Virus record (IMG/VR): IMGVR_UViG_3300021400_000138
Location: 64,001 to 128,000 of that record
Length of the DNA stretch: 64,000 bases
From: a virus
Taxonomy: Duplodnaviria > Caudoviricetes
Strand: one strand, 5' to 3'
The notes under the pieces were generated by a model. The model worked only from the letters and a program-made list of their open reading frames with translations, was not told the origin of the DNA and did no database searches. This document shows, piece after piece, positions 5,284 to 39,585 of the stretch. A program made the translations under genes and the position numbers. The first letter of the stretch is position 1, and the number at the start of each line of letters is the position of its first letter.

Positions 5284-5610
5284 ATGAGGATATTAAATAC
5301 GGCAAGACAGCTTTTGTTTATAGAAGAAGATATGCGGAGGAAGGATCCCGAAAAAGAGTTCGACATATATATGTTTGAACAAACCTGGGGATCCACGGCA
5401 TTAGGATTTGGCGAAATGGGTGGACAAGCAATAACTGGTGAGACAACGTTCGTGTTGATTCCGTATGACAGAGAAATAGCTTATGTATTCTTCGGTGCAA
5501 ACTTTGCGTACAAGATTGAAGGATATAATGATCTGTTTAAAGAAGATTTGCGGAAGCATCGCATGGCAAGTGTTCGCGAGAGTGGAAAGTATAGAAGAAA
5601 CAGAGAATAA
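5284..5610 (+). CDS. hypothetical protein
   Basis: 108 aa, ATGA-coupled. Its TAA is the left arm of a TAAAA-N6-TTTTA site. Confidence 0.7.
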   Translation: MRILNTARQLLFIEEDMRRKDPEKEFDIYMFEQTWGSTALGFGEMGGQAITGETTFVLIPYDREIAYVFFGANFAYKIEGYNDLFKEDLRKHRMASVRESGKYRRNRE

Positions 5611-5647
5611 AATTTTGGTTTTACCAATTTGTATAAGGAATTAATTC

Positions 5648-5902
5648 ATGAGCAAACATAAGCATAAAGGTCGATTAATCGATCATCTCTGGACATTTAT
5701 CAAATACAAACATGACGAAGCTATCTATGCACGTTGTAGTTGTGGATTTGTATATTCCTGTTATAAGCATGTTGATGAACTAGGCTTAAAAATAGTTATT
5801 GCTCCAGAAAAGCCATATCCATATTGTCCATGGTGTGGTGCAAGAAAGAAAAGATATGATGAAGAAGTGAAGAGAGTGGATTATTCTTGGTGGGAGAAAT
5901 GA
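5648..5902 (+). CDS. zinc-ribbon hypothetical protein
   Basis: CSCG...YCPWCGA motifs. Confidence 0.65.
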   Translation: MSKHKHKGRLIDHLWTFIKYKHDEAIYARCSCGFVYSCYKHVDELGLKIVIAPEKPYPYCPWCGARKKRYDEEVKRVDYSWWEK

Positions 5903-5903
5903 C

Positions 5904-6146
5904 ATGCCAGAAAAATTTAGCATTATAAGAAACATTGATATCGAAGTTTTAGAGCGTAAGCTGGATGCCTGGAATATTACTCATGATTATTTTCCAATTA
6001 TATTGATATCAGTAGATACATTTAAAGATCTTCCTCCTTTCATGAGTGAGGATGTAATTATTAGTACTGAATATAATTACATATATCATGGATTCAAGGT
6101 ATTTATTGATCCAGAAAAGACATATGGAGATGTTGAGTTAAGATGA
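5904..6146 (+). CDS. hypothetical protein, 'YGxV' paralog family copy 1
   Basis: Aligns by eye with the 12903, 25072 and 30411 products. Confidence 0.7.
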   Translation: MPEKFSIIRNIDIEVLERKLDAWNITHDYFPIILISVDTFKDLPPFMSEDVIISTEYNYIYHGFKVFIDPEKTYGDVELR

Positions 6147-6475
6147 ATATTGAAGCAAGATGGTCAGGATCATATCCAACTTTATGTTTTGGACATTGGA
6201 CATTGCTGATCGATGGAGAAGATGTATCAGAAAAAATTCCAGAAGATGTTCGTAAAAGCCCGATGAATACCTTCGGAATCTATCAGGATTGGCATTTTGA
6301 AAACTGGATGGAAGTTTTCGAAAATTATGCCGATGGATTACTTTGCGATGAGTGGATTGAAGAAAATGATTATTGGCTGAAAGATATAACCGATGATTAT
6401 AGTGTTAAAGAAGAAATCTATGATGCTTTTAATTCAGAGGATTTTCGATATGGAAGCTGCGGTGGATGTATATAA
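6143..6475 (+). CDS. hypothetical protein ending in CGGC
   Basis: 110 aa, ATGA-coupled. Confidence 0.7.
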   Translation: MNIEARWSGSYPTLCFGHWTLLIDGEDVSEKIPEDVRKSPMNTFGIYQDWHFENWMEVFENYADGLLCDEWIEENDYWLKDITDDYSVKEEIYDAFNSEDFRYGSCGGCI

Positions 6476-6941
6476 GGGGTTATAAAATATGAAAGAAAAA
6501 ATTTCAGAATTGTTGTATCAACAACTCGGCGGAATTTATTGCGATAGCTGCGAGTATCAAGATAATGAAGATTATTGCGAGGGATGCCATCGTAAGTATA
6601 TGAAATGGGCGATTAGCAAAAATGCTACTGATGGATTGGCGGAAGCAATTATGGAGATAGTTAACGAATGAAATTACATACACGTTGGAAAAGAAAATAC
6701 CCGAACATAATCGGCAAACGATTCTTTGATGGCGGTGAATACGGTCTAGGATATTTTACGGTGCTTAAGGCTTGGAAATGCAAAGAGTATTGTAAATCCG
6801 CATTCGCTCCAGATGGTACACGTTGGTTTGATAAAGAGATGATTCTGATTAAAACAGATACGGGATTAAAGTACAAAGTTCCGTTTTGTCCCTGGGCAAA
6901 AATAACCGATGAAGATGGCAAATGGTGGAGTAAATACTTTA

Positions 6942-7406
6942 ATGAAAAACCTTGGTAAAGAATATATCCATTACGGACATACTTTATTTGATCAGGACAT
7001 ATTCCAGCCAGTAAAAAATCAGGAATGGGGTGCCGCAAAACCGTTAGGTGGCTTTTGGGCATCTCCAGTAGATGCAGAAAGAAGTTGGAAGAATTGGTGT
7101 GAAGATGAAGAGTTTCGTCTGGAAAATTTGAATACCAGTTTCAGATTTCATCTTAAAGATGATGCTAGAGTATTTCACATCTATAGATCAGATCAACTTC
7201 AGCAGCTTCCAGAACTTGATACAATTATTAAAGTAACCTGGTATTGTATAGACTTTGAAAAAGCCGCCGAAAATTGGGATGCTATTGAACTTCATTTATC
7301 TGAGGAGATTTGCGATGATTACTTGGAAAGCTTATACTTTCGCCTTTATGGTTGGGATTGCGATTCTATATTGATTATGAATCCGGAGATTATATATAAT
7401 GTTTAA
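6942..7406 (+). CDS. hypothetical protein
   Basis: GGAG RBS before ATG 6942. Contains KPLGGFWASP and LYGWDCDSILIMN motifs. Confidence 0.7.
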   Translation: MKNLGKEYIHYGHTLFDQDIFQPVKNQEWGAAKPLGGFWASPVDAERSWKNWCEDEEFRLENLNTSFRFHLKDDARVFHIYRSDQLQQLPELDTIIKVTWYCIDFEKAAENWDAIELHLSEEICDDYLESLYFRLYGWDCDSILIMNPEIIYNV

Positions 7407-7582
7407 TTTTGATGATCGTGAAATGGAAATTATAAATTATACAATGGAGTTACTTAATGGATTTTTGCTTAGGTTCAGTGAATTGGAAGAAAGAGTGTCG
7501 TCCTTAGAAAAAATGTTGAATATTGAAAAAGTTAAAGGCACAAGTCTTGAAAATCAGTTTATTCAAAATGAAGGAGTTCATC

Positions 7583-7849
7583 ATGACACATGAACTTAAG
7601 GTTTTGCCAGAATATTTTGAGGCTTTGGTTAATGGAAGTAAAACATTCGAGATTAGAAAAAATGATCGAAACTTTCAGGTTGGTGATTGGCTATTATTAA
7701 AAGAATGGAATCCAGAAACTGAAGAATATACTGGTTATTCTGTTCTGCGCTATGTAAGTTATATTCTTTATGATTGGCAAGCTGGACTGAAAGATGGTTA
7801 TTGTATTATGGGATTAAAACATGGTGCGCCAACGGCAACACTTGATTGA
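7583..7849 (+). CDS. DUF3850 / ASCH-like (PUA fold) protein
   Basis: HELKVLPEYF...GSKTFEIRKNDRNFQVGD.L.L.EW...YTG signature and AAGGAG RBS. Confidence 0.85.
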   Translation: MTHELKVLPEYFEALVNGSKTFEIRKNDRNFQVGDWLLLKEWNPETEEYTGYSVLRYVSYILYDWQAGLKDGYCIMGLKHGAPTATLD

Positions 7850-8067
7850 GGGGATAGTATGGCAGTTGTTGTAAAAGATCTTAAAATGCCAAAATGTTGT
7901 AATGAATGTCAGATGTGTTATGAATATGTCAAAGAACATTGTTGGAAGAATGGCGATTGGTTTTCACGAAGTGGATTTGATCCAGAAAAGAGCAGATTAC
8001 CTGAGTGTCAGTTAATGGCAGCTAAAGTTGTAAATGCTTGACGAACGTCAAGTAATAAGGAGAAAAA

Positions 8068-8442
8068 ATGAATTATATAGTTAATCCATTATGGTTTTAT
8101 TTGATAAGTGTTGCGGAAGGTATTGATATAGCGGCTTTTGTTGTATGTACAATAACTTTGATTGCATTGTGCGTCTTTTCATTAATTCTTTGTTTTTACT
8201 ATGATGAAATAGATGATTCCGATAAAAAGACGATTGAATCTATATTTAAGAAATCTATCATTCTATTAATAACATCATCGATAATTGCCATAATAGTTCC
8301 TGGGCGAGAAGATATGGAAAAAATGTTGATTGCTTCTTATGCTACCGAGGAAAATGTTTCCGCAGCAACTAACTATGGTAAGGATTTGGTTGATTATATC
8401 TTTGATAAGGTTAATGGCGTTAATAAAGAGGAGAAGAAATGA
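8068..8442 (+). CDS. hypothetical membrane protein
   Basis: Two or three hydrophobic segments and AAGGAG RBS. Confidence 0.7.
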   Translation: MNYIVNPLWFYLISVAEGIDIAAFVVCTITLIALCVFSLILCFYYDEIDDSDKKTIESIFKKSIILLITSSIIAIIVPGREDMEKMLIASYATEENVSAATNYGKDLVDYIFDKVNGVNKEEKK

Positions 8443-10459
8443 GCTTATTGATCAAAGGCGAATCAATGCCAGATAGTTGTTCTGTTTGTCCTCTTATGCA
8501 TGATAACGGTTGTTGTATAACTGGTTATCAATGGATATCTCGAACTTATATTGATATAAATTTTGATTCAACTAAAAAGAGATTGAAAGATTGCCCATTG
8601 GTTGAAATAAAATCACATGGGGATCTAATTGACAGGGATGTTCTCAAACAGGATTTGAGCGATTTTTACACAGATATCGTGACAGCGAGACGATTAAAGT
8701 AAGCAGAACAGTTGAGTGGTAATAGATAATGAAAGAAGTAAAGGTATATCAATGTGAAACATGCGGAACGAAATATAACGACAGAGGAACAGCTGAGTGG
8801 TGTGAAAGATCACACAACGACAAGCATTTATTAGAGATGACTTACTTATACTTGTTATTAGCTCAACAGCTAGGAATAAAATTTCAGGAGGCACAACATG
8901 AACTTTTATGAGGTATGAGAATGCCAAAATTCGGAATATTAAATGATCCATTTTCAGAAAGGGAATATAATCGACCCATTTGTAGTAAATGTATGTTTTA
9001 TGATTTTAATGAGATGTCTGATGAAGCATATTGTGCCGCCAAAGATTATGAACCGATTCAGTTATATCGAAAACATCGTCCTAACTGGTGTCCAAGATTG
9101 GAAAATATATATGGATATTATTTATGATGAAGATTATCTCGTTTGCGAACCATGTTTAAGCTGCGAAAAATCATATACAGAAGATATATGGTGGGAAACA
9201 TTCTGCGATGAAAAAGAGTGCATTCATAAGAAAGAATACGAAAATCAGATGAAAAAGCTGCCAGAAGAAAGGATATGACATTTTGAAAGATCGAATAAAT
9301 TTAATTCTTGACGCAAAAGAAGTAGATATTGTTATTGATGCGCTTGATTGTTATGTATATATGGCCTCTAGTCTTTCAGAAGTTAATAAATACATAGAAA
9401 TTAATACAGTTAGAAATCATATCTATGAGAAATGCCAGAAGGAATTTGATGAGGAATTATCTGTATGAATGATGGTTATATTATCTGTGAATACAAAGGT
9501 GATTTAGTTCGTGTTCAATTTGATAATGAAATGAGCGGTTGGTATCCAAAATATGATTCTGCCAAAGTTATTAAAAAGAATTGTCAACCATTGAATGATT
9601 ATGGGCTGCTTTGCGAAAGAGATTGGGAATTTTCTTATAAACTTGTTAAAGATTCATGGGATGGATTTCAGCCAGTTGATGATATTGATTTGGATAAAGT
9701 GGATGCTATAGATATTGTAATTGATATTCTCCTACAATTTAGACATGGAATAATGGATGGTTACGGATGCAAAAAAAACAAATTATGATTGGTGAATTAA
9801 AAATTCCTAGATCTCGTTGTGATGAAACGGCGAAAGATTTATTAATAAAAATAAGTGAAAGTTATTATATGGGTAGAACTAATACGGATGATGAGTATAT
9901 TTACTTTGAAATATATGATAAAGATGAATTTAGTAAATATAGTAGCCCTGTAAATGTAGATTGTTTAAAGGATGATTTTTATAAATGAAGTTTATCTTAA
10001 ATGGTTGTGACATTAGCTTTATTGCTGAAGCGCCAGATGATATAACCTTAAAGCAATTAATAAAACAATGTGATAAGATCAAACCAGATTGGTGTGCTTG
10101 CGGAATATGTTCTCTAGAATATGAAAATTATCCAGAAGATACTGAAGTCGAAATCATTTTTGGATATGATTCAGTTAGAAAAGCCAATGAAGATGTTAGT
10201 TGTAGGATTACAGAAAGCAGTAAATGGATTGAAGAATAAATATGAGGTATAAGATGGTTAAAGTATTTACGACAAATAGCAACGGGAAAATAGAATTTAC
10301 TAAAGAAGAACTTGAAAATCTGCTTAATGAAGTTTGGCAAGATGGATATCAATCAAATAAATCTTATTGGTGGACATCACCTACGATTACTACACCGCAT
10401 CTTCCAACGAATATTATATATAGTAATGAAAATTAAAAGAATAAAATGAGGGATTAGAA

Positions 10460-10966
10460 ATGATAATTATCGGATACCAAGGAATCGGGAAGTCTACTTT
10501 GGCAAGATCAGAGAATGGATATATAGATCTGGAAAGTGGATGCTTTTGGAATGATGGTAAACGCCCAGATGATTGGTATATCTATTATTGCCAGATAGCA
10601 GAGCATTTATCTAGGCAAGGTTATGTTGTTTTTGTATCTTCTCATCAGACCGTCAGAGATTTTCTTAGAGAATCGGCAGAGATTGTGATTACTATTTATC
10701 CTTCAATTCTTCTTGCCGATAAGTGGAAGAACAAATTAAAGAAAAGATATGAATCTACAAGAACCGAAAAGGATTATAAAGCCTGGATGAACGCGGAAAA
10801 TTATTATCATGTAAATATCTCGCATTTAATGATGTGTGGAATTCTTCATTTAGAGATTGAGAATATTAATTATGATTTGGATAAAATGATACGTGCCGTG
10901 ATTAAGAAAAATCCAAAAGTGTTTCCGGACGATTCATACAGCAAATTAATGTGGGTAGAAGAATAA
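10460..10966 (+). CDS. P-loop NTPase / nucleotide-kinase-like protein
   Basis: N-terminal Walker A, IIIGYQGIGKST. Confidence 0.75.
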   Translation: MIIIGYQGIGKSTLARSENGYIDLESGCFWNDGKRPDDWYIYYCQIAEHLSRQGYVVFVSSHQTVRDFLRESAEIVITIYPSILLADKWKNKLKKRYESTRTEKDYKAWMNAENYYHVNISHLMMCGILHLEIENINYDLDKMIRAVIKKNPKVFPDDSYSKLMWVEE

Positions 10967-10977
10967 AGGATTAATTT

Positions 10978-11376
10978 ATGAGAACAATTTTGTTATATAT
11001 AATGATTTTTCTTCATATAGTAGATGACTATTATCTTCAAGGAATACTTGCCAGTATGAAGCAGAAATCCTGGTGGGAGAAGAATGCGCCAGACCAACTA
11101 TATAAAAACGATTACAAGGTTGCGTTGATTGAACATGCATTTAGTTGGACCTTTATGGTCATGTTGCCAATAACTGTGCTGATGGTGGCTAACAATAATA
11201 TATTGATAATTCCATGGAGTATAGCATTTGTTGTTAACTGGATTATCCATGGATGGGTGGATCATTTAAAAGCTAATGTTAAAAATTGTAGTCTTGTAGT
11301 TGATCAAATAATTCATGCATGCCAGATTTTTGCAACATGGTGTGTAATGACAGAGTTAATGGGGGTTGTCGGATGA
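10978..11376 (+). CDS. DUF3307-like membrane protein
   Basis: HIVDDYYLQ, H..VDHLKAN and DQIIH His/Asp motifs between TM helices. Confidence 0.7.
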   Translation: MRTILLYIMIFLHIVDDYYLQGILASMKQKSWWEKNAPDQLYKNDYKVALIEHAFSWTFMVMLPITVLMVANNNILIIPWSIAFVVNWIIHGWVDHLKANVKNCSLVVDQIIHACQIFATWCVMTELMGVVG

Positions 11377-11660
11377 GTGTCTTGATTAAAGGTATAAAGA
11401 TGCCAGAGAGTTGTCTGGATTGCCCCATATACGACAGTTATTATTATCATTGCAATCTGTATGGTTACGGCATTCCAGCAAGACATGACTATGATCCATC
11501 AAAAATACCAGAATGGTGCGAACTCGAAGAATTCCCAGAACATCATGGTAGATTGATTGATGCGGATGTTCTAGCTGCGGAATCACTTGCGGATGGTGCT
11601 TATGGATATGTGGACACAAAAGAGATTTACGATGCACCTACGATTGTTGAAGCGGAATGA
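11373..11660 (+). CDS. Cys-rich hypothetical protein (MSxLIKGxxMPxSC family)
   Basis: Paralogous to the 7859, 8439, 11673 and 23811 products (MPxxCxxCP, HGRLIDAD). Confidence 0.7.
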   Translation: MSVLIKGIKMPESCLDCPIYDSYYYHCNLYGYGIPARHDYDPSKIPEWCELEEFPEHHGRLIDADVLAAESLADGAYGYVDTKEIYDAPTIVEAE

Positions 11661-12902
11661 AGGGTGGCAACGATGATTAAATTAGATCTTGAAATGCCTA
11701 AGGATACCTTTGAATGCCCGTTTTTAGAGGAAGATACGGATAGTGTTCTTTGGTGCTATTTTGCACCGCAAGTTGAGAAAAGATGTATTGGATTATTTAA
11801 GGGTGAATGTCCAATAATAAGAGAAGAAAATTCAGAATGAAAGGGTTATTTGATGGAAGATAGTATGCCTTATTTTTTGGCTTGTTTTTATATGACATAT
11901 ACGGAAGAACATGATAGATTATTATCCAATATAAGATCTGAACATGATCCCACAGAAGCCATTGTAGATTATGGGTGTAGAAAGTATTCTGATAGATATG
12001 CAATAAACTGTAGAAAGTATTTATACAACTTATATCCGCAATTTAAAAAAGCATGGAATGAAGAGATACGTAAGCATAACAATTATTCTGCGCAACATTG
12101 GATAGACGAATATGAAAGATTAACCAATGATGGCTGGAATATTAAAGGATATCGCAATCACGATTTATTTGCTGTTTTTGATAACGAGGGGCTTATTTGA
12201 TGAGATTCAGTCTTGTATATAAAAAGAATAATAAATTCAAAGAGTTATATTCAATTATGAAAAACAATATTGAAGAAGCTTCAAAAACATTTAATAGTAA
12301 TTTACCCAAAGATAACAAGGACTATTATATAAGAGTTATCAGACCAAAAGCTGAATATTATGATTTAAGCGGGAAACCTATTAATATAGAAGTTGGATGA
12401 GGGTTATTTGATGTGCAAGTTTTGCGATAATTTATCGGAAAGAAAAGAACGAGAAAATTTGTATGGATATTTTGACCCGGAACTTGGTAGATGGATACAG
12501 GAATATACTGTTGCATTAGTGATCCATAGTTGGTATCAAAAACGTGGCAAGAAGTCTGCATTTAGGACGGTTGACTTCAGAAACAAAGGTTTAGGATATA
12601 AATTGAATTATTGTCCAGAGTGCGGGAAAGAATTATAAAGTGGGGCTATTTGATGAACTATAAAGAATTTGCGAAAACATTATTCGATTCTGAAGACCAA
12701 ATGTTTCCAAATGGTACAGACGCACAGACTTGTTTAAATATTTTGGCGGAGCATTTCTTGGGAAAAGATTTGGTGTTAAATTATCCAGGTCATATAACTC
12801 AATGGAATTCTGAAGTTACTCACGAAATTTTGAGAAAATATCCATCTGGAAAAATTAGAAGGATACATAAATAAAACGATTTTTTTACTGAGGGGTATAT
12901 AA

Positions 12903-13168
12903 ATGCCAAAATATTTTAGTATTTTACGCAATATTGATACAAAAATCTTAGATGAACAAATTGCTGATTGGTTTGATGAACATAAATACGATCCGATAAT
13001 ATTGATGTCACCAGATACATTGAAAGAAATACCAACACTTGAGGACTTGGGAATTCATATTACGAAAAGTACGTATAATAAAATTGCACAGGCAGAGTTG
13101 GCACATACGAGGGAACAAAAGTATTTAGCGATCCAAGCATGAAATATGGTGAAGTTGAATTGAGATAA
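12903..13168 (+). pseudogene. frameshifted 'YGxV' family copy 2
   Basis: N-terminus matches the 5904 product. The family C-terminus (TKVFSDPSMKYGEVELR*) lies in another frame ending at TAA 13166-13168. Confidence 0.6.
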
Positions 13169-13659
13169 AATAAGTTTTTATGGTGAGGCATATGAAAGTA
13201 TATATAGTGACTTCTGGTATATATTCGGATTATATGATACGAAAGATTTTTCTAGATAAAGACAAAGCTGAGGAATATAAAGAATGGATTCCAAACAGTA
13301 ATGATATTGAAGAATATGATACTTCAGATGAAAATATTATAGATAAGTTATATAAAATCAGAATTGATCTAAGATGGTATCCGAATAAAGAAGAAAAACT
13401 TTTTGCAAGTGCATGTAAAGATTGTGAATCGGATTATAATTACAATCATTACTCCAATTACAGTGATATATGGGAAGAATTGGTTGTTGTAAGAACAGTA
13501 AACGGGGAAAATTTTAACGAAGAGTTTTGGAAAGATAAATTAACAAAGTATATATATGATTTAAAAGCCTATGTTAAATATCTTAAAACAGAAGGCTGCA
13601 ATGAGAAACAAATAAGAGATGCAATAGAATTAAAATGAGTTTTTGATTAGGATTATATT

Positions 13660-14142
13660 ATGAGTAAATCTTTAGATTTTTGTAAAAGTAGAGCATCTAA
13701 CCCGGAAATTTCAAGCTATGCCGACCGCAATTGGGATAATGCGGTTGAACAGAATATAACTAATTGTTTAGATTTTATTATAAAAGGTGTAAGAAATTAT
13801 AAACTTACATGGTATTTAGATGATGGTACAGTAGCGTTCTATAATGTCAATTTAGAAATAAATCCGAATGCTGACTTTGATTATTTTACATCTGATTCTT
13901 TTATATGTGATGGCACGTTAATATTTCTTGCTGAGTCAATTGATAAGATGCTACGAAAAATTCTTAGTCTTGGAACATATAATAAAAATTTGGGTGAGCC
14001 TCCTAATGGTTGCACTGTAAATTATGTTATTGGCAATGCTGTTATTCTTTCGGAATATGATGGCGATTGGATACCAAATGGCAAACAATGGATGCGAGAA
14101 AGAAATACCGTACTTATACCGCTAAAGGTTTGGTATGAATAA
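13660..14142 (+). CDS. hypothetical protein
   Basis: 160 aa, flanked on both sides by TAAAA-N6-TTTGA sites. Confidence 0.7.
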   Translation: MSKSLDFCKSRASNPEISSYADRNWDNAVEQNITNCLDFIIKGVRNYKLTWYLDDGTVAFYNVNLEINPNADFDYFTSDSFICDGTLIFLAESIDKMLRKILSLGTYNKNLGEPPNGCTVNYVIGNAVILSEYDGDWIPNGKQWMRERNTVLIPLKVWYE

Positions 14143-14168
14143 AAAGATTATTTGAATGAGGTATCTGT

Positions 14169-14579
14169 ATGGAATTGTTATTAAATGGTTATCTAACTAA
14201 AGACTATGATGGTCATCCAGCTTTAACAGAAAAACCAACATCATCTAAATACTGGGCAAAATCAATTCCCAGAGAAATACAGTATAAATTTGGAAAAACA
14301 TTTTATGACGATAAATGCCTTGGAAAAGACATTAGTTATATTCCAGATTGCTGTATGAGTATCTGGTATACAGATGGAGAATGTACTTTTGATGAAGCCC
14401 AGGAAGCTTTATGTAATTATTTGGACGGTTATATGACGGTTGAGGTAGCATATCAGGGTTATTCTGAATGGACAATTACTGGATTTGATTTAGAAGAATT
14501 CAGAATCGGCGGACATAACTTGGAGAAAGAACTTGAAGATCATATGGGCGAGTATTGTTGGATAAGAATAACGAGGTAA
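14169..14579 (+). CDS. hypothetical protein
   Basis: 136 aa with GAGG RBS. Confidence 0.7.
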   Translation: MELLLNGYLTKDYDGHPALTEKPTSSKYWAKSIPREIQYKFGKTFYDDKCLGKDISYIPDCCMSIWYTDGECTFDEAQEALCNYLDGYMTVEVAYQGYSEWTITGFDLEEFRIGGHNLEKELEDHMGEYCWIRITR

Positions 14580-17357
14580 GAATTTATGAGAGTAACAATA
14601 TCAAATGAATTTACACCTTCTCCGCAAGATATGATTGAAGAATTCTGGGAGAGCACCGCTGAAAGACAGGCGGAAATATTGTATTCATTAGCATTGATTT
14701 GTAAATATGATTTATATTCATTCTGTATGCAAATGTCTTATGTGTCAAATGAATTGGATGAATTGGATAAAGATGCCAGAGAAGATATTCTGTTTTGTTT
14801 GAAAGAAATGGTCAATCAAATTGAAAGATAATGCAGAGTGATATGGATAAAGAATATATTATTAATGTAATAACAGCAAAGATCAATAAATTTATATTAG
14901 AGATAAGCGAGAATTCTAAACATCATGCTGATTTTATTCAAGACAATACCAATATGGTTGTATTTGGTGCTGAAACAGCTTTAGATATTATGAAGGAAAC
15001 AATACTGGATTTATTTGATGATGTTTAGAATTGGAATAGATGAGGTTAAAATATATGACATACGAAGAAAAGCGTGAACTTCGATTACAGATTAGTCAAC
15101 TACTTGCAGACGCTGGAATCAATCAAGAATATCTTAAAGAACTTGCACGAGAAGAACTTGAAAAGAAAAGTGAACGTGCAATTAAACAGGTGGTTGAAAA
15201 TAGAGTGAAAGAAATCTTGCCAACTATGTTAAAACGAGAAATCCAATCTAGTTTATATTCTGCTGTAAAAGGTGAAATCCAAAATAGGATCATCCAAGTT
15301 GTATTAAAGGATTGCGAAAATGGATAAGGAATTATTAATATGTCCAGTATGTGGAAAAGAGAATAAATACGATTATTATTCAGAAATTGAATGGGGCGTA
15401 GTCGAGCAGCATTATTATTGTCCACGATGTACATATTTTGTTGATCAAGTATATAGCCCAATTATCAAAGGCATTAGTACAGATTGTCCAGAGGAATATA
15501 TTGAAAAAGCCAAAGAGTTAAAATTGGATTTTTATAAGCCAGAGGAGATACCATAAATATCATGATTGACTTCGGATTTGGGACAGCATTTAGAAATAAT
15601 TTAACTGATAAAGAAGAAGCTGCTCTGGATCATCTATTAAATATGATGACTGCTATAAAACAACAAATTCTTTTAAGAAGAGCGATGAAAGAAGAGTCAA
15701 ATATTTATAGGAAAAAAGATAAGCCAGAGGAAATACCATGAAATATGATTTTCGAAGAATATTTAATCCAACAGAAGAAGAACAGGAAGAAGATCGACGG
15801 AAATATAAAGAATTGCATTATGAACTGGCGGAGAAAAAAGGTTGTTCAACTTGCAAACATTGTATTCACGTTAGAACTTATCCAGATTATGTAACAGGCG
15901 AAGAATGTGAATGCTCTGCTGGTTTGGAATGCGATACCGTTTTATTTTCGGTAACCAATTGTCCAGAATGGATAGATGATTTTGAGGAGTTATCATGATA
16001 CTTAAAGACATTAGTAGTGAATGTCAACGCTGCGTTAACTTGAAAGCATGGAATATCCGTATGAATGGCGAACATGATTATTGTTGTAAACGCAGACCTA
16101 CAAAATTTATTGATAAGTATTTGCATCAAGAACCTTGTGAGGAGTTTATAAATATAGATTGTATTGATTGTATTAACCATGGCGGTGATTGGGAATGCGA
16201 TTATGTCCACTGCCATAAAGGAGAAAGTCATGAGTGAATATATCGACAAATCCAATGCGATAGATATTCTGGATGATCTTTGGAATAGGGATAGGAATAA
16301 TAGTAGAGCTTTCTATTTACGATTACGAAAAGCCATATATGATTTACCAACTGAAGAAATAATCCATTGCAAAGATTGTAAATACTATTGCAACGTTTTA
16401 TATCAGGGTACTCAGTTTGAATATGGCGAATGTGACGCAGTCGATGAGTTTTATATTGAGAATAAAAAACCACATGATTTTTGTAGTATGGCGAAGTTGA
16501 AAGAATGAAGATGGGATATTATGCTAAAGAACCTTTTGATGAATTAATAAAGACTTTTAAGGACTCCGGTCAATATGATTTTCTTGAAAAACTTACCGAG
16601 GATGAACTTTGGAAAATATTTTTATTAATTACATTTTTAAATCTCTATGGGTCTTATTCCCCGCAACTTGCTGCAGACAAACTAAGCGAAGCTCGGGCTG
16701 ATACCCCGCAGCAAGCTGATGACATGAATTTACAGGAAAAAGATTTACATCAAGTTAATAACAAAGATGTTCTATTAATTAATATCAAAACATCAATTAA
16801 TGACTTCATTACAGAATTACAAGAAAATGCAAAATATCATGCTGATTTTATAAAAGACAATGTAAACCTGGTTGTGTTTGGAGCTGAAGAAGCTTTGAGA
16901 ATTGTAGAAGAAACAATAGAAAAATATGAAGATATGTAACGCTACTGGCAACGGTATTTGTATTAATTGCAATCGAATTCCGCCAAAAATCAATGGATAT
17001 TCGTATGGAAATATCTGTAGAATTGATGTCGAAGATATATTAGCTGCTTTGGAATGTGGTAATCTTGTTTGTTATAACTCAGATAACGGTAGATTTTATG
17101 AAAAGATAATGTATGAACATCCGAGAGATTTTATAGATGATGAATGGGAGTGTATTGGATGAATGATGATGAATTCAGAATCTGTGATCGAGTGTTTTTT
17201 TCTGGAAAATATGGTCTTGGTTATTTTGGAAACATAGAAAAGATTGATCACGATGGACAAAAATTGTTAGTACGAACTGATGATATGAGACTATATGAAA
17301 TATCTATGGATAAAGTTACACTCTTAAAACATAGATAACCAATAAAAGAAGTGTTTT

Positions 17358-17528
17358 ATCTGCGGTAGACAAGCATTAAAAGTCGATAAGAAAATGAAGC
17401 TCCGGGAAAGGGACACAGGCGTAGCTATGGCTCCGTCGATTGGAGAGACACCTTTGAGACAATAACCTCAGAATCTTCGTTGCAACCCGTAAGGAGATGC
17501 GTGTGATTGAAACTGCACACCCGCAGAT
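17358..17528. ncRNA. candidate structured non-coding RNA (~170 nt)
   Basis: GC-rich intergenic island closed by an 8-bp stem ATCTGCGG/CCGCAGAT with several internal hairpins. Confidence 0.5.
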
Positions 17529-17583
17529 TTGGAGATTAGTAAATGAATAAAAATTGGAATGCATGTAATAGGAGAGATTAGTA

Positions 17584-18123
17584 ATGGCTGAATATATTAA
17601 CAGTGGTGTTAAAGCGGTTGGTATTGGTGACAATGTGGGAATTGATATTCCAAAGCCAATTGCATCAATAAATTTTGATGCACTTCATGCTGGAACGTAT
17701 GTAGTGGATGTTAAACAAGATGGATCATATTTGGCTACTTTTGTTGGAACGATGTATGAAAGTGAATTAAGGAGCAAGATTATGACAGGATTAGAAGAAC
17801 TTAAGGATGTATATGAAATAATTAAAAATGGGTATGGTTATCTTTGCAAAAGTATATCTTTACCATACGAGGATAACGAATATACAAAATTTGTATTTGA
17901 ATATCAAGGATTTCCAATAAAGCATTCATTTTCATATTTGCTATATGAGAGTCCATACGGAGAAAATGATGACGTTGAATTCTTTGATAGCGAGAATAAG
18001 GTAATATTTACTGTGGCACAATTGTTCGCCATTGCGTATCTTGTTAGAACTATTCAGAAAAACAGAGACGATAAAAATACGATTAATGGGTTTATTGAAT
18101 ATCTTAAGAAGGATATCAGGTGA
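17584..18123 (+). CDS. hypothetical protein
   Basis: 179 aa with GGAG RBS. Confidence 0.7.
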   Translation: MAEYINSGVKAVGIGDNVGIDIPKPIASINFDALHAGTYVVDVKQDGSYLATFVGTMYESELRSKIMTGLEELKDVYEIIKNGYGYLCKSISLPYEDNEYTKFVFEYQGFPIKHSFSYLLYESPYGENDDVEFFDSENKVIFTVAQLFAIAYLVRTIQKNRDDKNTINGFIEYLKKDIR

Positions 18124-18126
18124 TTT

Positions 18127-18459
18127 ATGAAAATTAAAAGCGGCAAAGAGAAAGAATATGAGATTTGTGTGGAAAACAATAGTAAGGACGGATATTCTAA
18201 AGCAGTCATAGACTATTTGGAACGATGGGCAAATTTAATGGAAAAAAGAATTGCTGATGGTGATAAAATCTGTGACATTGCAAAACAAACATCTCACGAA
18301 GCCGATACAGAAGGAATTACTGGTTTTATGTACGGTTGTGCAGTAAATATATTATCGCAATTATGGGAATATGGGGAAGATCTTCGTAAATGGCATAATA
18401 AAGAATATGGGTATGAAGGAGAGAGGGTTGTTAATCCGGCAGTGTTAACAGTTGGATGA
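18127..18459 (+). CDS. hypothetical phage protein
   Basis: 110 aa, ADTEGITGFMYGCAV...W.YGE.LRKWHN. Confidence 0.7.
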   Translation: MKIKSGKEKEYEICVENNSKDGYSKAVIDYLERWANLMEKRIADGDKICDIAKQTSHEADTEGITGFMYGCAVNILSQLWEYGEDLRKWHNKEYGYEGERVVNPAVLTVG

Positions 18460-21400
18460 TGAATTTTATACGAAATTCAACTGTGAAATTTACTTGAAAG
18501 GGGAAACATATGTGGGATCCAGAAAAAGATGCTTGTGATTATTGCTTTGAATGTGAATATTTTTTAGATGATTATTGGAACTGTCAGGGTGGCATAGAAC
18601 CTTGTTGGGAATTTGTTCCAAAGAAAGATTCTAAATATAAAAAAGTTGAAATAGAAATAACTAATGAAACAAGTCTTTGATAAACGATTATGAAGAAAAT
18701 TTTGATAACTAAGAATGGGAATATCCCAGTTGGAGTCTATAACGTTGAAGCAGTTGATGAACATTGGAGTTGGGGATATCACTGGTTTGATTTTCAGCTA
18801 AGTGATGGGAGTAAATCAGTGTATTATCCAATACCAATGTACCATTATTATATTGTTGCTGATAGAAATTAGATTCAATGAGAAGAACAATATGGATATT
18901 ATAGAAGAGTTGTATAGTATTATTATTAATGGAATTATTCATAGATTTCCATTAGAGACGTTTACTAATAAACGCGGAACATTTGAATTGATAGAATTAA
19001 TGGTAGAAGAAATATGCGACAAACATATAGACAATTTTTATAAGTCATATTTTGATAAGTTTGTCGATGTTAAGGACTTTGGAAATTAGATTTGATTGGA
19101 GAAGTAATTATGAATAACAAATTACCGCAACCGATAGATCCTACCGTATGGTTTAAACCGAAAACACAAGATGATATTCTGATTGAAGGCATCACAAGTG
19201 GAATTAAAGCTGCCGGGGTTCGTGGAGAAGATGTAACAGTGCTGTTAATCGAAGCATTAAAGAGCATGGGTAGAAAAGATTTAGTTCCACCATGTTGTCA
19301 GTAGGAGGGAATGAAATGACAAGACAAGAAGCAATTAGAAGAATCAAGGATCATATAGATATCCACCGCATGTATGAACCAAAAGGAACTAAAATTTCAG
19401 AAGCTTTAGAAATGGCAGTAAAATCTCTTGAGAAGCCAGTTTTATTCGTATACAAAAAGCCAGGAGTAATGGTAGGTCACAATTTTACAGATGATGTAGC
19501 AATAACATATGCGACAACCAAAGAGGAGGCTATAAAAAAGTTTAAAGAATTTTATAGTGATGTAAATAATGAAAACGTATCTGAGCCATATTTTAATTAT
19601 GCTAGAGTTGCAATACTTACTGATTACTAATGATGACTGAATTTTGATGGGAGAAAATATGAACTATAACGAGAACGGTATTTGTAAATTTACAATAGAA
19701 CGAGAAGATAGTCATGGTTCACAGCAAAAACACCCGCTGCAATTGGTGGCGAGAATAGATGTTGATGACCTAGTAAAGCTATTCGATGAAGCCTCGACAA
19801 ATTTTGATGGTGAGAACCCCATTTGTAAAGTAAAAGATCCAATTAAATTTACGGAGTTTGTTATCAGAAGGTTGTGGGATGATGCACCATATGAAGCCGA
19901 TGACGTTGTTTGGGCGCAGCCGTTGACTTATATCTTTGAACAATTGCTGGAAGATTATAAGCCAGAGTTTCTTGAGTATTTTGATGAAGTATAAAACAGT
20001 GGTTAATATGGACAATATAAAATACGTTACAAAAGAAGAAGTTGATGAAGAAAAATATAGTTATGCAGTATGCGAATGCACAGTTTTTGGTCCAGACTAT
20101 GGTATACAAGTACCGAGGAAAAAGTATAATGATTTTGTTGAATTTAAATGTCCAAGATGTGGCAGAAAACTCGGACTATTTGTAAGAGGTACCGATTTGA
20201 ATTGTGATTATTTTAATGTATGTTAAAATTGAGGTTTTATCGGGAAAATGAAAATTAAAGATATTACTGTGAAAAAGGTAGAAAAAGTAGAATGGCATAC
20301 TGAAACCCCAATAAATACAGGAGTTTTGGACGCATATTTGGATGCTGATATGGATGTTAAGCGAGAAATCGTTATAGTTCCCCAAATTGCACCCAATTAA
20401 TGGTCTGGATTGCATGGATAAACTTCGTGATTGGTGTAAAATTGAAAGGAGTCTTTGAGGAGGAAAAATATGTATAAAGAGATGCCACCAGATGCTATGC
20501 AACCACATGACACTTGGGTTATTGCATTTTGTCCAGATACAGATTCGTTCTTTGTCACCAATCAAAGAGCATTCTACTGGGAATCCGAAGAAGAATTTGA
20601 ATCAGAAGAAGCTGGAATATATTTTTTTGAGCATCAGATTCAATACTTCATTGATGTAGAAGAAAAATTAATGAGCGACATGTTTATTAATGCTTGGAGT
20701 ACTGATCGTGTTTTTCTGGAGAACACAAATAGACAATATTTTAAAAACTAAGTTTTATGGGAGAGGTTACATATTAATGAACACACTATATAATATAACT
20801 TCAACTAATATTGGAATTTTTTATAAAGATCAAAAGTGGAAGGACGATCTATTTAAAGAATTGGTACGTGAAGCGCATGAATGCAAAACTCTGTATAGCT
20901 ATAGTGTAACCGAAAATAAAATTCGGTTTTGTGATACATATATTAATATCAATATTATTTTCGTGGGAGCAAACGAACATTCACGAGGACATAGATTTGA
21001 TAGGATCTATTATCAGAATGACATTGATCAAAACACTTTCTCAATGGTGATACGTCCATTGTTTATGCCGAAAATATTTCCGTTATAATTAGATGAAAAA
21101 TTCATAGATAAAATAAGTATTTCATCCAAAAAGGAGTAAAAATGGATAAATTTGAAAAAATAGCTCAAATTAGGTGTTTTGACCAAAATGCAACAAAAGA
21201 CGTTGTGAAAACTCTTGAAAAATCTGGGTTTTATATATGCTTTGAAGATAATTATGGTCCAGATGGGAATGACTTTATTTTAATGAAAAAAGTAACCCAA
21301 TAAAAATTTACTTTTATTGAGAAACGGGAGAATTCTATGACCTACGAAGAAAAATATATGACTTTTGAAAAAGGTGAAAAAAATTAAATGGCAACTAAGA

Positions 21401-23069
21401 AAAACTTTTTTAGTGAAATAACTCCGGCACATCCGGTATTTCCGAAGGATGAAAATGAACGCCGGGATTGGGAATTGTGGAGCGCGGTATCAACTGCAAT
21501 CCATATGTGCGGTTATAGCGGCGAAGACGTAGCAGCGATGTCTTTTGAAGTAATGAAGGAAATTGGAAGACAAGATTTGCTTCCACCGTGTGATAGATGA
21601 GGTATCTAATTTATGATGTTATCTATTAATGAAATTGAAAGATCAAAATGGATTGTTGATAATGAAGGAAGAGATTATATAGAGCAAAGGTTTTAAAGAT
21701 GATTGAAGTTAAGTTTAAAGTTAAAATCCAAAATAGATATGGAGAAATAGAATCAAATCTAAAATAGAAGATTCAACATCTTAAAAACAGCAAGAGATTG
21801 TCCTATATGTATAGATGGAAAATGTATCGGAGTAATAACAGACGTTGACACAAAAACTGATGAATGTTATGGATATATTTTTGATCAAGACGCTGTTATT
21901 GAATTATCACAAGATTTTCAAGAAGTGGTTTCGGTAGAAATTATAGATTCCAAAACAGGATGTGGCTTATGAATATCAAAGATCTATTTGAAAAAAGATC
22001 AATAAATGCCTATAAGGCCATATATAACAATGGCTTACCATGTTTATATAAACGTAATGATCTATGCACTTGGGCGGAAGAAGCCTATGAAAGAGGAGAA
22101 AAATACTTCTATTGTAGGCCAGTTGATCCAGATGACCCATATGGTAAGTTTGAATTATGTGAGCCAGAATATAGATGGTTTATTAAGGATAAGAATGGTT
22201 TGACAGAAGAACAGTTTAATCAGATTTGTAATGCCATAACAGCCCCGTAGAAGATTGTGAGTTGAAAGATGACGCGGTTGATGGTATGATGTGCGAGGAT
22301 ACATTAACTGCCTGATGCAAAGAAGTAGGAGAATAATCATGGATTTTAAAGTTGGAGACAAAGTAATAGCCAATCATTTCGGTGGAATGGAAACAAGATC
22401 TATTGGGACTATAGTCAAGATAACACCCAAACGGCAGGATATCGTTGTTGATTTTGGAAATTACCAAGAAACATTTGATAAAACAGGATGGCAAAAGGGC
22501 AGTAATATATGGTATAAGAGTTCGATTGAATTACTTACGCCTGAGATTGAGAAAGAATTGCAGGACGCTGCTCTGATTAGAAAATGCAAGGATGTTTTTA
22601 ATAAAACTGAGCTTACGCCAGAAATTGCCGCAAAGATATTGGAGGTATTAAATGAAGTGGACGTACATTAAACGAGATAAGGTCTGGAAGAAACAACTCC
22701 ATCATTACTGGACAACTGTGACAGATGCCTGGGGTGTTTCTTCTGATGAAAGATATAATTATAAGATTGACACTTATTTATACAAATGTTTTTCATTCAA
22801 GCATGGTTTTTGGTATCAAGTGAAAGTGCCAAATTTTACTGCGAATAATAAAACACTTGGTGGAGTATTAGATCAATTGTTTGGATATCTTTATAGAGAT
22901 GGCGGGACACCTTGTTATCAAAGGCTGGAAGATGAGTTGATAAGTAAGGGGTTCTGGAAAAAATTAGGATAAATTTTGATTTAGTGAACAATCTGTGTAC
23001 AATTCCCAAAATCTAACATAAATAATATATAATACAATATATAATTAATAAACAACAAGAGGTATTTAT

Positions 23070-33390: not shown

Positions 33391-33840
33391 ATGAAGATAT
33401 TAAAAAATAACTATAATGAATCTACTTGCGAATGTGAAAAGTGTGGTTCTGTTTTATGTATTAGCGAAGATGATTATTACATGGACGAAAACAACAATAC
33501 ATATTGGAGATGCCCACTTTGTAAAGCAAAAAATATTGTTAAAGAACCAGAAATAACTATTGAAACAATTAAGTTTCCGGAATCATTTCATGAGTTTTTG
33601 TCTGAAGAAAAAGGTGGAAATGCTACAGAAATTAAAGATGAAGAAACCAACGACTGGATTAAGGAGTGTTTAAAGTTTCTTAGAAGAAATCCAGATGAAA
33701 CATTTAGATATATTTCGTCTGGAGATACTTTTGTGGCGGTTTTTAAACATTATAGTGATGATGAATATCTTGCTATCGTAAGTAAAGATCACTATGAGTG
33801 TTATATACCTTTTGAAAATGAGGACTTTGAGTATGAATAA
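33391..33840 (+). CDS. zinc-ribbon hypothetical protein
   Basis: CEKCG...CPLC. Confidence 0.65.
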   Translation: MKILKNNYNESTCECEKCGSVLCISEDDYYMDENNNTYWRCPLCKAKNIVKEPEITIETIKFPESFHEFLSEEKGGNATEIKDEETNDWIKECLKFLRRNPDETFRYISSGDTFVAVFKHYSDDEYLAIVSKDHYECYIPFENEDFEYE

Positions 33841-34396
33841 AAAAATAATTTTATTGAATGGAAGTGCGGCGGCTGGAAAAGACACGTTTGCATCTATGAT
33901 TTCTTCAATCATACCCTCTATGTCATATTCCTCTGTCCAGTATGTTAAAGAAGCCGCAAAAGTTCTCGGCTGGGACGGAGTGACTAAGGATGAAAAGTCC
34001 AGAAAGTTTTTGTCGGATCTTAAGATTCTCGCCACAGAATATAATGATCATCCATACAAGATGTTATGTAAGGTGATTAATGATTTTTTACAAGATGATA
34101 TTCATGAATGGCTTTTTCTTCATGTTCGTGAACCTGGAGAAATTAGAAGATTGGTTAAGGTTTTCCCCGAAATTATTACGGTTCTGGTTATTAATCCGAA
34201 TGTTAGTCCTGTGACGAGTAATATGGCTGATGCAGGAGTGAATCACTACTATAGATATAACGAGAAGATTTTGAATGATGGCAGTCTTGCTGATCTTCAG
34301 AAGAAGGCGGAAGAATTTGTGAGGAAATATAGAATTGAAGACAGTAGAAGAAATGATACGGTCGAAAACTCCGGAAGGGTGGCAGAAGATTATTGA
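33833..34396 (+). CDS. deoxynucleoside monophosphate kinase-like protein
   Basis: LNGSAAAGKDT P-loop, LGWDG..KDEKSRKFLSDLK and HVREP motifs. Confidence 0.8.
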   Translation: MNKKIILLNGSAAAGKDTFASMISSIIPSMSYSSVQYVKEAAKVLGWDGVTKDEKSRKFLSDLKILATEYNDHPYKMLCKVINDFLQDDIHEWLFLHVREPGEIRRLVKVFPEIITVLVINPNVSPVTSNMADAGVNHYYRYNEKILNDGSLADLQKKAEEFVRKYRIEDSRRNDTVENSGRVAEDY

Positions 34397-34507: not shown

Positions 34508-35314
34508 ATGAATGAAAGAGAAGAAATTTTAAGTAATCATAAATATAATATATGGCAGAGAAAGAATGGAAGTTGGCGATCTTATCTTCCAGATAAAACC
34601 AGAAAGAGCGGAAAGCGTGAAGTCGAGCGCATACATAAAGAAGACCTAGAAGATATAATAGTAGATTTTTATTTAAACCGAGAAAAATATGAAGCTGAAG
34701 CAGAAGAAAATGCCAGGATTATAGAAAAGACCAAAAAAGAAATAGAAGAATTTGAAACCAATAAATTATTAAAGGATGCTGCAACCTTTAAAGAGATTGA
34801 TATCTGGGATATAAAACCAACTTTATACTTAGCTAAACCTACTGGAGAAATTATATCTCGTGAAGCAAATAAGCCGATGAATTTCTATGTAGATGATACT
34901 ACTGAAACTTATGCTGGCTTGCATTATGTGGTATTAAGAACTAATGATGGGCCTAAGCGTTTTTGTGTACCAAGAATTATCTGTGCATTATTCAACGGCA
35001 TGCCACCAGAAGATATGAAAGATCCTACAGTAGATCATATTGACAAGAATTCGTTAAACGATTACTACCAAAATCTGCGCTGGATTGAACGAGAAGCAAA
35101 TTCTGCGATACGAGATAATCGCGCCACAGGCGAACTTAATGGTAGGGCATTGCTTACCACAAAAGATGTAATAGATATTTGTAATCTTTTGGTTAAGAAA
35201 GTAAAAACCGTACCTCAGATTGCCAGGATGTATGGGGTAAGTGATGGATGTATTAGAAACATTAAAGAAAAGAAAAATTGGAAATATATCACTCAATGTT
35301 TTCAGTTTGATTAA
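34508..35314 (+). CDS. HNH endonuclease with an integrase-like N-terminal domain and C-terminal HTH
   Basis: TVDHIDKNSLNDYYQNLRW HNH core and PQIARMYGVSDGCIRNIK HTH. The first ~55 aa align with the neighbouring integrase N-terminus. Confidence 0.8.
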   Translation: MNEREEILSNHKYNIWQRKNGSWRSYLPDKTRKSGKREVERIHKEDLEDIIVDFYLNREKYEAEAEENARIIEKTKKEIEEFETNKLLKDAATFKEIDIWDIKPTLYLAKPTGEIISREANKPMNFYVDDTTETYAGLHYVVLRTNDGPKRFCVPRIICALFNGMPPEDMKDPTVDHIDKNSLNDYYQNLRWIEREANSAIRDNRATGELNGRALLTTKDVIDICNLLVKKVKTVPQIARMYGVSDGCIRNIKEKKNWKYITQCFQFD

Positions 35315-36630: not shown

Positions 36631-36790
36631 ATCTCTTAACGATCTCTTAATTTTAGCCTATTGATGAGCTAAAAGCCCTGAAAATAGGCAAAAGAAAAGC
36701 TGCTGACGGGAATCGGAGAAGTGACCGCATGGCTTGAAAGCCCGTAAAATAGGCATTCTTTAAAAAAATAATCTTTTAACGTTTTTAACG
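36631..36790. other. attP region: tRNA 3'-end core with flanking arm-type repeats
   Basis: 36698-36717 reads TCCGATTCCCGTCAGCAGCT on the - strand (T-loop to acceptor stem, Thr-like). Direct repeats AAAGCCC..AAAATAGGCA at 36672 and 36737. ATCT(C/T)TTAA repeats at 36631, 36642 and 36771. Confidence 0.75.
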
Positions 36791-36841
36791 GCCAATAATC
36801 AGGAGGTCATAGCTGATATCTAGCAAATTTCAGCCGACCAG

Positions 36842-36893
36842 AAAAGCATATATGAAAGAATAGTTCTCATCATATTTTTTCATATATGCTTTT
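36842..36893. terminator. long inverted repeat, probable terminator between attP and the DUF262 gene
   Basis: AAAAGCATATATGAAA ... TTTCATATATGCTTTT. Confidence 0.6.
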
Positions 36894-37004
36894 TTATATC
36901 ACCACAGCGATACCTCGCCAAATTGTACTTTTTTCAATACAATCCTCATCTTATATACAAAAATTATTATTCTCCTTTATAATTAAATAAAAAGGAGGTA
37001 CATC

Positions 37005-38000: not shown

Positions 38001-38005
38001 AAAAT

Positions 38006-38030
38006 GGGGTAGGACATATAATCCTACCCC
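38006..38030. terminator. hairpin terminator between the convergent early and late blocks
   Basis: GGGGTAGGA-7 nt-TCCTACCCC flanked by A/T tracts. Confidence 0.8.
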
Positions 38031-38073
38031 TTAAAATATTGTATCTGATATCACATATAATATTTGTTAAGTA

Positions 38074-38409: not shown

Positions 38410-38422
38410 AAATCATTCCTCC

Positions 38423-38941: not shown

Positions 38942-39018
38942 GACTCACTCCTTTCTAGACTTTACAATAAGTTAATTCCTTTTACTCAATATGATAAATT
39001 AAGAAATTAAATAACTTC

Positions 39019-39555: not shown

Positions 39556-39585
39556 AATTAATTCTCCTTTTTATTTCATAATAAT

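Follow-up and report, generated by a model that had tools for sequence, protein, structure and literature searches.

A 16-bp palindrome with position-specific centres at gene ends of SPbeta-like phages

The small-gene array and its palindromes

We analysed a stretch of 64,000 nucleotides, called here the window, which covers bases 64001-128000 of the 185,390-bp virus record IMGVR_UViG_3300021400_000138 (Duplodnaviria, Caudoviricetes; a gut phage; 34.6% G+C, terminal repeats present). Positions are those of the window unless the genome is named, and genes were called with a simple caller based on codon bias and ribosome-binding sites (RBS). The window carries an array of small same-strand genes, mostly without kinship to each other. 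The original prediction, made from the letters of this DNA, proposed that TAAAA-N6-TTTTA palindromes punctuate the array between 5608 and 21316 as the boundaries of a possible integron-like cassette system. Comparison of the array with deposited phages by megablast gave zero matches, the ligase used as query found no relatives among viral contigs, and tRNA and Rfam scans of the window revealed no tRNA and no known RNA family.

The perfect palindrome occurs eight times in the window, compared to an expectation of 0.87 from 100 dinucleotide-preserving shuffles, none of which reached eight. The whole genome contains 12 copies with the 6-base spacer (N6) and 0-3 at each other spacing from 0 to 14. 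Moreover, 27 called genes end in TAAAA, and TTTTA follows exactly N6 further in six of them and at other offsets in none. The left-arm TAA is the stop codon at 6 of the 12 sites, and 7 of the 12 are intergenic or overlap a stop, with a coding share of 85-90%. Since stop codons make up 2.2% of all TAAAA words, six or more stops in the 24 arms that the 12 sites provide would arise with P ~1e-5, and this overlap is not due to chance. In this way the genome scan and shuffle test proposed with the original prediction revealed enrichment and a fixed spacing. In the usual layout the stop lies in the left arm, the RBS 1-4 nt past the right arm (at most sites) and the start codon 13-24 nt past the right arm. 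The sites are concentrated in two hyperplastic regions (genome 28.7-30.3 kb and 69.6-85.3 kb), the first of which holds a second cluster made of one-mismatch copies, mostly with the right arm TTTGA. Note that most junctions of the window array carry no site.

All the sites in the window lie on the + strand. The six perfect copies of the original prediction were all present, and two further ones were found at 15519 and 33838. The left-arm TAA is the stop of ORF (open reading frame) 5284-5610 at TAAAA-TTTTGG-TTTTA (5608-5623; the following ATG is at 5648), of gene 12653-12874 at the site with centre CGATTT (12872-12887; following ATG at 12903; CGATTC at the matching place in the relatives G002 and G004), of ORF 19984-20226 at TTGAGG (20224-20239), of ORF 21142-21303 at ATTTAC (21301-21316), and of ORF 33391-33840 at AAATAA (33838-33853), which lies beyond the span first described. 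The TTGAGG site also bounds, on the left, a 175-nt block that holds a single gene and has 98.9% identity to metagenome contig L028. The spacer of the site with centre ACTAAG (20742-20757; a centre kept in order in G002 and G004) contains the TAA that stops ORF 20470-20751, and TTGGAT (15519-15534) lies within the final 37 nt of ORF 15320-15556. The site with centre GAAGTG (17343-17358), whose 16-mer is identical to that at SPbeta 73669 and which has GAAGTT at the matching place in G002, opens a 245-nt gap. No called gene and no tRNA or Rfam match was found in this gap (17343-17583), and the bases after the site, TCTGCGGTAG..., recur behind motif copies in G002 and G004.

The variants listed with the original prediction also matched their description, and extra ones lie at 18665 and 20443. 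In TGAAA-GGGTTA-TTTGA (11838-11853; GGGTTA kept in order in G002, G003 and G001) the TGA of the left arm stops ORF 11673-11840; in TAAAA-AGATTA-TTTGA (14140-14155; centre in order in G001 and G002) the TAA stops ORF 13660-14142; and in TGAAA-CAAGTC-TTTGA (18665-18680; CAAGTC kept in order in G004) the TGA of the right arm stops ORF 18510-18680. TAAAA-TAAGTA-TTTCA (21109-21124) lies in the gap ahead of ORF 21142-21303, and the identical 16-mer occurs in G002 with other neighbours. In TAAAA-TGAGTT-TTTGA (13631-13646) the stop TGA of gene 13192-13638 is within the spacer, and a decayed copy with an N5 spacer (TAAAATAAGTTTTTAT, 13166-13181) directly upstream of the same gene resembles this TGAGTT site. 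The claim that the motif sits at gene junctions, often with the stop in the left arm, held, with two corrections: the site at 15519 lies inside the 3' end of an ORF, and at 13631 and 20742 the spacer and not the left arm supplies the stop.

The gene that ends in the site at 12872 encodes a protein of 73 aa that matches the Pfam family Tad8, a type II Thoeris inhibitor (43.9 bits, cut-off 27). The array therefore carries at least one anti-defence gene, and this gene ends in a perfect motif site.

The element across SPbeta-like phages and its symmetry

The phage genome is SPbeta-like. It keeps the yopP-yopQ-yopR order of SPbeta outside the window (genome coordinates: Xer-like recombinase 36751-37722, YopQ-like 37736-38992 and YopR-like 38985-39917) together with SPbeta-type replication and packaging genes, and homologues of YorJ, YorL, the YonF terminase, YomM and YonN are present. 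Its NrdD is nearest to that of Clostridium phage c-st (42%), whose annotation lists many SPbeta homologues. A tblastn search of this phage gave no YonO homologue, and a signal specific to the YonO polymerase was rejected on that ground.

The palindrome with its 6-base spacer is also abundant elsewhere in the group. Bacillus phage SPbeta (134,416 bp) has 34 perfect copies at N6 and 0-4 at other spacings, c-st (140 kb) has 26 and 2-12, and a low-G+C prophage of ~160 kb in Paenibacillus oleatilyticus, located through a YopR alignment, has 28 and 0-6. In the 7.9-Mb Paenibacillus genome we counted 48 copies: 28 in the prophage, 5 on another low-G+C contig and ~15 in the other 7.7 Mb, while the reversed-pattern control gave 66. 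Since 33 of the 48 copies lie in low-G+C phage-like DNA and the control reaches 66, the element is specific to the phage lineage, and a host-wide signal was excluded. The motif is not private to this phage but characterises the SPbeta-like group as a whole; core proteins are merely 21-30% identical between the phages that bear it.

In these genomes the sites also gather at gene ends. Intergenic or stop-overlapping sites account for 27 of the 34 in SPbeta, 23 of the 28 in the Paenibacillus prophage and 17 of the 26 in c-st, at a coding share of 85-90%. With our own gene caller the left-arm TAA was the called stop at 11 of the 34 SPbeta sites and 13 of the 28 prophage sites; by the SPbeta annotation it is the stop of yoqG, yoqS, yoqY, yorT, mtbP, yorZ, yosC, yosF and yosR. 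Other SPbeta sites lie in gaps, some of them distant from start codons or between convergent genes. A perfect copy is found within the yopR homologue in SPbeta (82017), c-st (26141) and the Paenibacillus prophage, which is unusual as the sites otherwise avoid coding sequence, and in this phage a perfect copy at genome 39901 overlaps the stop of the YopR-like gene. Two observations were given no weight: all 34 SPbeta centres are distinct, which is expected by chance with 4096 possible centres, and a c-st site matches the one at window 20224 in 15 of 16 positions, which is within chance for the number of pairs compared. No paper on the motif or on SPbeta intergenic palindromes was found in the literature.

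The arms revealed what kind of element this could be. SPbeta carries its 34 perfect copies with every single-mismatch class at background, and the Paenibacillus prophage carries the mirror-image variants TGAAA (18-19) and TTTCA (20-21), each at spacing 6 only. The bases next to the arms are also biased across 170 sites (A at position -1 in 73%, T at position +17 in 66%), and in SPbeta a weaker symmetric consensus, TYTRRA-TAAAA, extends the arms to up to 11 bp each. There is no covariation: the flanks of one site are no more complementary to each other than flanks taken from different sites, and the spacer does not pair with itself. A mirror-image consensus that lacks covariation points to a double-stranded DNA site for a paired protein and not to a hairpin, which would be unlikely in any case since five A-U pairs are unstable. 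The element thus fits a consensus palindrome, the signature of a predicted paired protein on double-stranded DNA, and we infer that this protein binds the site.

Ordered centres and replaced genes

Relatives were collected with gene 13192-13638, for which five viral contigs and five metagenome contigs gave 44-80% amino-acid identity. Gene order is conserved genome-wide among the relatives, with protein identity typically of 40-70%. The arm consensus over five genomes is TAAAA-N6-TTT[G>T>C/A]A, and in this five-genome comparison the perfect palindrome was not enriched in the relatives of this phage. The original prediction had described the arms as conserved and the spacer as free. The spacer does vary from site to site within one genome, but each site's spacer is kept across related phages, and the commonest right arm in the lineage is TTTGA and not TTTTA.

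The centres are also kept in order. Ten of the 11 centres shared with G002 were in order (shuffled order gave a mean of 5.0 and a maximum of 7), as were 7 of 8 shared with G004 and 6 of 9 shared with G003. The 108-134 kb region of SPbeta gave the same picture: 12-13 of its 13 centres are in order in phi3Ts, Goe13 and Goe11, where 53-69% of the DNA aligns, and in SPbetaL1, where 39% aligns, 7 of 7 shared centres (of SPbeta's 13) are in order. Moreover, blastn matched SPbeta 116431-119414 to nothing in the four relatives with which it was compared, although every one of these retains all three centres of the segment. Centres that stay fixed per site while the genes between them are unrelated are the pattern left by crossovers inside the sites, and this pattern is not predicted by a purely regulatory site.

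In support of this, identical 16-mers, centre included, lie between different gene pairs in different relatives. The site TAAAATGAGTTTTTGA (centre TGAGTT) has four such settings: it joins genes A and B (A|B) in the window, whereas G001 has it at X|B, G002 at A|C and G004 at X|A. Differing gene pairs likewise meet at the centres CGGTTA, GACACG, AGATTA, TAAGTA and TTGAGG. Gene 13192-13638, which has a DUF7336-like N-terminus, stands beside the TGAGTT centre in six contexts, on either side of it. In G002 it is bracketed by two copies, and in the window too, where the copy at 13166 is decayed (TAAGTT, 5-base spacer); such bracketing is what the insertion of a unit at a site, or unequal exchange, should leave behind.

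Homology blocks of 84-99% identity begin or end at a site edge at window 11836, 13165, 13631 and 20226 and at genome 30001. One block ends at the stop codon at 12874, where the relative has no site. Other animal-gut contigs, drawn from four runs as Logan contigs, with uncovered stretches and low-likeness joints excluded as evidence, match only 13168-13648, 20460-20758, 21299-21633 and 21153-21317, and then continue as unlike sequence. A joint of 7391 to 13631 in run X5 is a hint only.

Proposed crossover joints, rival readings and known systems

We propose that the sites are copies of a cis element that all SPbeta-like temperate phages have in common, the 16-bp inverted repeat (A)TRAAA-N6-TTTYA(T), which would be read as double-stranded DNA by a paired phage protein. 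Its copies occupy tiny gaps at gene ends, with the left arm often doubling as the stop codon in this tightly packed phage, and every copy bears its own 6-base centre, the same centres following in the same order in related phages. A crossover inside a copy would therefore connect two genomes at a gene boundary and in register, so that whatever genes lie from one copy to the next are swapped with no gene broken and the order unscrambled. In our opinion there is an even chance that the element is such a lineage-wide, protein-read junction palindrome, with position-specific centres that are ordered crossover joints. As to the agent, we tentatively suggest that exchange at the sites could be catalysed by the conserved YopP-type or YomM-type tyrosine recombinase. 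This enzyme would act on the conserved arms at dozens of junctions, and exchange would be completed only between equal centres, the centre being the overlap that must match. Another possibility is that the phage's general recombination acts on the ~16-28 bp of identity. That SPbeta-like phages run an addressed site-specific exchange system is conceivable, if on balance doubtful. All centres within one genome differ, so such a system, if true, would never delete within its own genome.

The only recombinase gene within the window (35394-36617, 407 aa) lies on the same strand as the array, 14 kb downstream of its last site, and its best sequence matches among solved structures are Xer proteins. 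An alignment with XerA, XerH and XerD showed that the catalytic Arg, His-x-x-Arg, His/Trp and Tyr are kept both in this protein and in the genome protein 36751-37722. The phage also encodes a YomM-type recombinase (34% identity). The yopP gene is a conserved core gene of the SPbeta group (PMC10516654); yomM is annotated as a site-specific integrase only, and nothing on its role was found in the literature. In simple Xer/dif-type sites two inverted arms of ~11 bp enclose a central region of 6-8 bp, and difH has ...ATGAAAA as its inner arm (PMC5357621). The motif shares the 6-bp centre, and its arms are conserved over 5-7 bp in this phage, with the weaker SPbeta consensus reaching 11 bp. The likeness to the geometry of tyrosine-recombinase sites, already pointed out in the original prediction, thus holds for the centre and in part for the arms, in a lineage with conserved tyrosine recombinases. 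It is from this geometry that we infer a link between the recombinases and the motif. As a separate observation, the recombinase 35394-36617 and the adjoining HNH_3 endonuclease-like protein (34508-35314) have a paralogous region in common.

Several results weigh against the sites being ordered crossover joints. The small-gene array is locally permuted between relatives, with a few of its genes 88-99% identical, and local permutation is not expected from strict in-register exchange. Some homology blocks end past the RBS, outside the motif (window 14164 and 20766). In the 110-134 kb region of SPbeta, 12 of 81 block ends fall within 20 nt of a site and sites make up 11 of the 59 junctions, so that there is no excess of block ends at sites; the motif is thus not needed for exchange, and junctions that lack it exchange too. 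A comparison of adjacency loss between motif and other junctions was underpowered, with only 2 informative motif junctions, and weighs neither way. In the laboratory hybrid Hyb2phi3Ts-SPbeta, the left crossover lies somewhere within 1.4 kb that are identical in both parents, which indicates active general recombination and makes this event uninformative on the sites. In this phage the arms themselves show just 5-7 conserved bp, little for the arm of a recombinase site, and the common TTTGA variant has no mirror twin (26 sense and 2 antisense). The idea of cassette boundaries, which was to be checked on breakpoints in relatives, therefore stands in part: the sites do bound gene-sized units that are gained, lost or replaced, but they are not the only junctions at which this happens.

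The main and serious rival is a purely regulatory or architectural docking site, on which a phage protein would sit at gene-end palindromes as a roadblock to transcription, an insulator or a silencer of the long arrays, in the manner of mycobacteriophage L5 stoperators, exchange being incidental. We regard this as a minority possibility of real substance. Arms of 5-7 bp with centres ~11 bp apart also fit helix-turn-helix dimers, which bind consensus palindromes such as operators of the 434 and CRP types. The sites occupy gene-end gaps on both strands, many of them away from a start codon (e.g. SPbeta 12496, 39886, 57148, 73669 and 88400), and motif junctions are not enriched for exchange points. 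Two SPbeta sites stand directly upstream of the MrpR operator and promoter of aimR and yorE, and 8 of the 26 c-st sites are within 45 nt of a repeated AATTAAATTAAA box, often followed by a -35-like TTGAC. This 12-mer has 29 copies in the 140 kb of c-st and may be that phage's counterpart of SPBRE, the operator of MrpR. The use of a repeated operator that is scattered over the genome and bound by a repressor with the recombinase fold is indeed established for this group (PMC10516654). However, the free spacer of a docking site should drift, yet the centres are kept in order across phages with unrelated intervening genes, which needs crossovers inside the sites. In this phage the ATG comes so soon after the right arm (13-24 nt) that there is no room for a promoter. 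A promoter or terminator reading was rejected, since promoter-like sites (96 vs 99.8 expected) and terminator-like sites (6 vs 5.9) are not above chance. Nor is the known repressor the reader: ChAP-seq of MrpR gave ~10 SPBRE peaks only and did not report the 34 TAAAA-N6-TTTTA sites (PMC10516654), and MrpR/YopR was discarded as a candidate because its published site has a different sequence.

The other readings are less convincing. An RNA or translation signal, in which the stop and the A-run and U-run ahead of the RBS would aid termination, re-initiation or mRNA processing, would agree with the stop in the left arm (6 of 12 here, 11 of 34 in SPbeta and 13 of 28 in the Paenibacillus prophage), with the right arm lying 1-4 nt ahead of the RBS at most sites of this phage, and with TTTGA being nearly always sense. 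Nevertheless, five A-U pairs make no stable hairpin, pairing is broken in the variants (A opposite G or C) and nothing covaries; mirror-image degeneracy would be meaningless in single-stranded RNA, many SPbeta and c-st sites are remote from start codons or between convergent genes, and the host genome does not feature the motif despite having the same ribosomes. RNA processing, the alternative raised in the original prediction, is thus disfavoured, and we consider a signal of this kind improbable. It is very improbable that the sites are a passive leftover, an ancestral linker copied along with the genes and with no present function. Their clustering in the two hyperplastic regions of this genome (28.7-30.3 and 69.6-85.3 kb) would suit such a leftover, but neutral sequence would have decayed, whereas the arms are exact in phages with core proteins only 21-30% identical, and in SPbeta the single-mismatch copies are at background against 34 perfect ones. 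Gene duplication was also rejected as the source of the repeats: the genome has merely 12 small paralogue families, none of which accounts for the sites. Scarcely credible is a true integron, with attC-like folded sites, an IntI-type integrase and an attI head with a common promoter. The small same-strand, mostly unrelated genes with a repeated 3'-end site and the tyrosine recombinase at 35394-36617 recall one. However, the site has 16 bp and lacks R/L boxes, a GTTRRRY core and structure-preserving covariation in its flanks; the recombinase lies downstream of the array and not at its head, where no integrase-attI-promoter module was found, and its nearest solved structures are Xer; and the site is missing from most array junctions. 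The label integron-like was consequently dropped.

The element was compared with the known systems that come closest. Like the motif, integron attC recurs at the 3' ends of small genes that lack promoters and are arrayed in one direction, but attC is longer (57-141 bp), its inverted repeat is imperfect and carries R''-L''/L'-R' boxes and a conserved GTTRRRY core, and it is the folded strand that is recognised. The stoperators of cluster A mycobacteriophages are also found by the dozen as short sites in small intergenic gaps of a temperate phage genome, often over stop codons. Those of L5 gp71, reportedly described by Brown and colleagues in 1997, are said to be asymmetric, 13 bp long, repressor-bound and in one orientation relative to transcription, whereas the phage motif is a palindrome with a free centre and mirror-image variants.

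The pdif/dif modules of Acinetobacter plasmids, sites of XerC/XerD, likewise have many dispersed short sites with arms round a 6-bp centre, which flank, in the accessory region of one replicon, accessory genes that vary between related replicons (PMC6449649). They differ in their 28 bp, in their defined 11-bp XerC and XerD arms, in the use of host Xer proteins and in the module-flanking pairs of alternating orientation (PMC6449649). In contrast, the phage motif has arms of 5-7 bp (with a weak consensus to 11 bp in SPbeta), is nearly symmetric and all co-oriented, has a centre that differs at every position and is kept in order, and is confined to a phage lineage with its own recombinases. The PeSL cassettes of T4-type phages (PMC2839356, PMC4122927) are conserved intergenic linkers among small orphan genes in hyperplastic regions, and crossovers in them insert, delete or replace genes at gene boundaries. 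In the same way, the sites studied here flank orphan genes in hyperplastic regions and mark indel or replacement boundaries between close relatives. However, PeSL are larger composites (~70-100 bp) in which a strong early promoter of the sigma-70 type is combined with a GC-rich stem-loop terminator, and general homologous recombination acts on them (PMC2839356, PMC4122927), whereas the motif, an AT palindrome of 16 bp, contains neither promoter nor terminator and its centre is site-specific. From the same phage group comes SPBRE, the operator of MrpR/YopR/SroF of SPbeta (PMC10516654; bioRxiv 10.1101/2025.11.27.690993), which is also a dispersed short element and is read by a protein with the tyrosine-recombinase fold. 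It differs in its sequence, AAATACAAAWAATATGTATA, in its ~10 copies and in its position at promoters; it was derived from the seven regions upstream of yopM, aimR, yonT, yonX, yopV, yorE and yonP. A pattern scan placed an SPBRE-like copy within ~80 nt of just one motif site.

It is an old question whether the boundaries of phage mosaics lie at gene ends because of selection on random joints or because of built-in linker sequences. This question becomes directly testable with a strict junction element that spans the lineage, has position-specific centres and occurs in the group to which SPbeta, a genetically tractable model in Bacillus subtilis 168, belongs. The punctuated arrays hold accessory genes, including the Tad8 homologue, and the element may set the pace at which counter-defence genes are reshuffled. 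If addressed exchange is true, accessory and anti-defence genes would be traded one slot at a time, and in register, between relatives that co-infect a cell or are resident in it. Were a dedicated recombinase to read the motif, it would be a new kind of dispersed, address-coded recombination site; were a regulator to read it, it would be a second genome-wide operator system in SPbeta-like phages beside SPBRE.

Finally, two observations lie apart from the element. G002 (132 kb) carries a second junction linker, AATTAATTATTAAAGGAG, which has stops in several frames and then an RBS, at ~13 junctions, in that relative only. In the window, the region 38000-64000 (- strand) and beyond contains many ORF fragments parted by an in-frame TAG only, with no RBS behind the TAG, and a TAG also occurs inside one of the three recombinase matches. 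TAG thus seems to be read as an amino acid in the late genes and as a stop in the early arrays.

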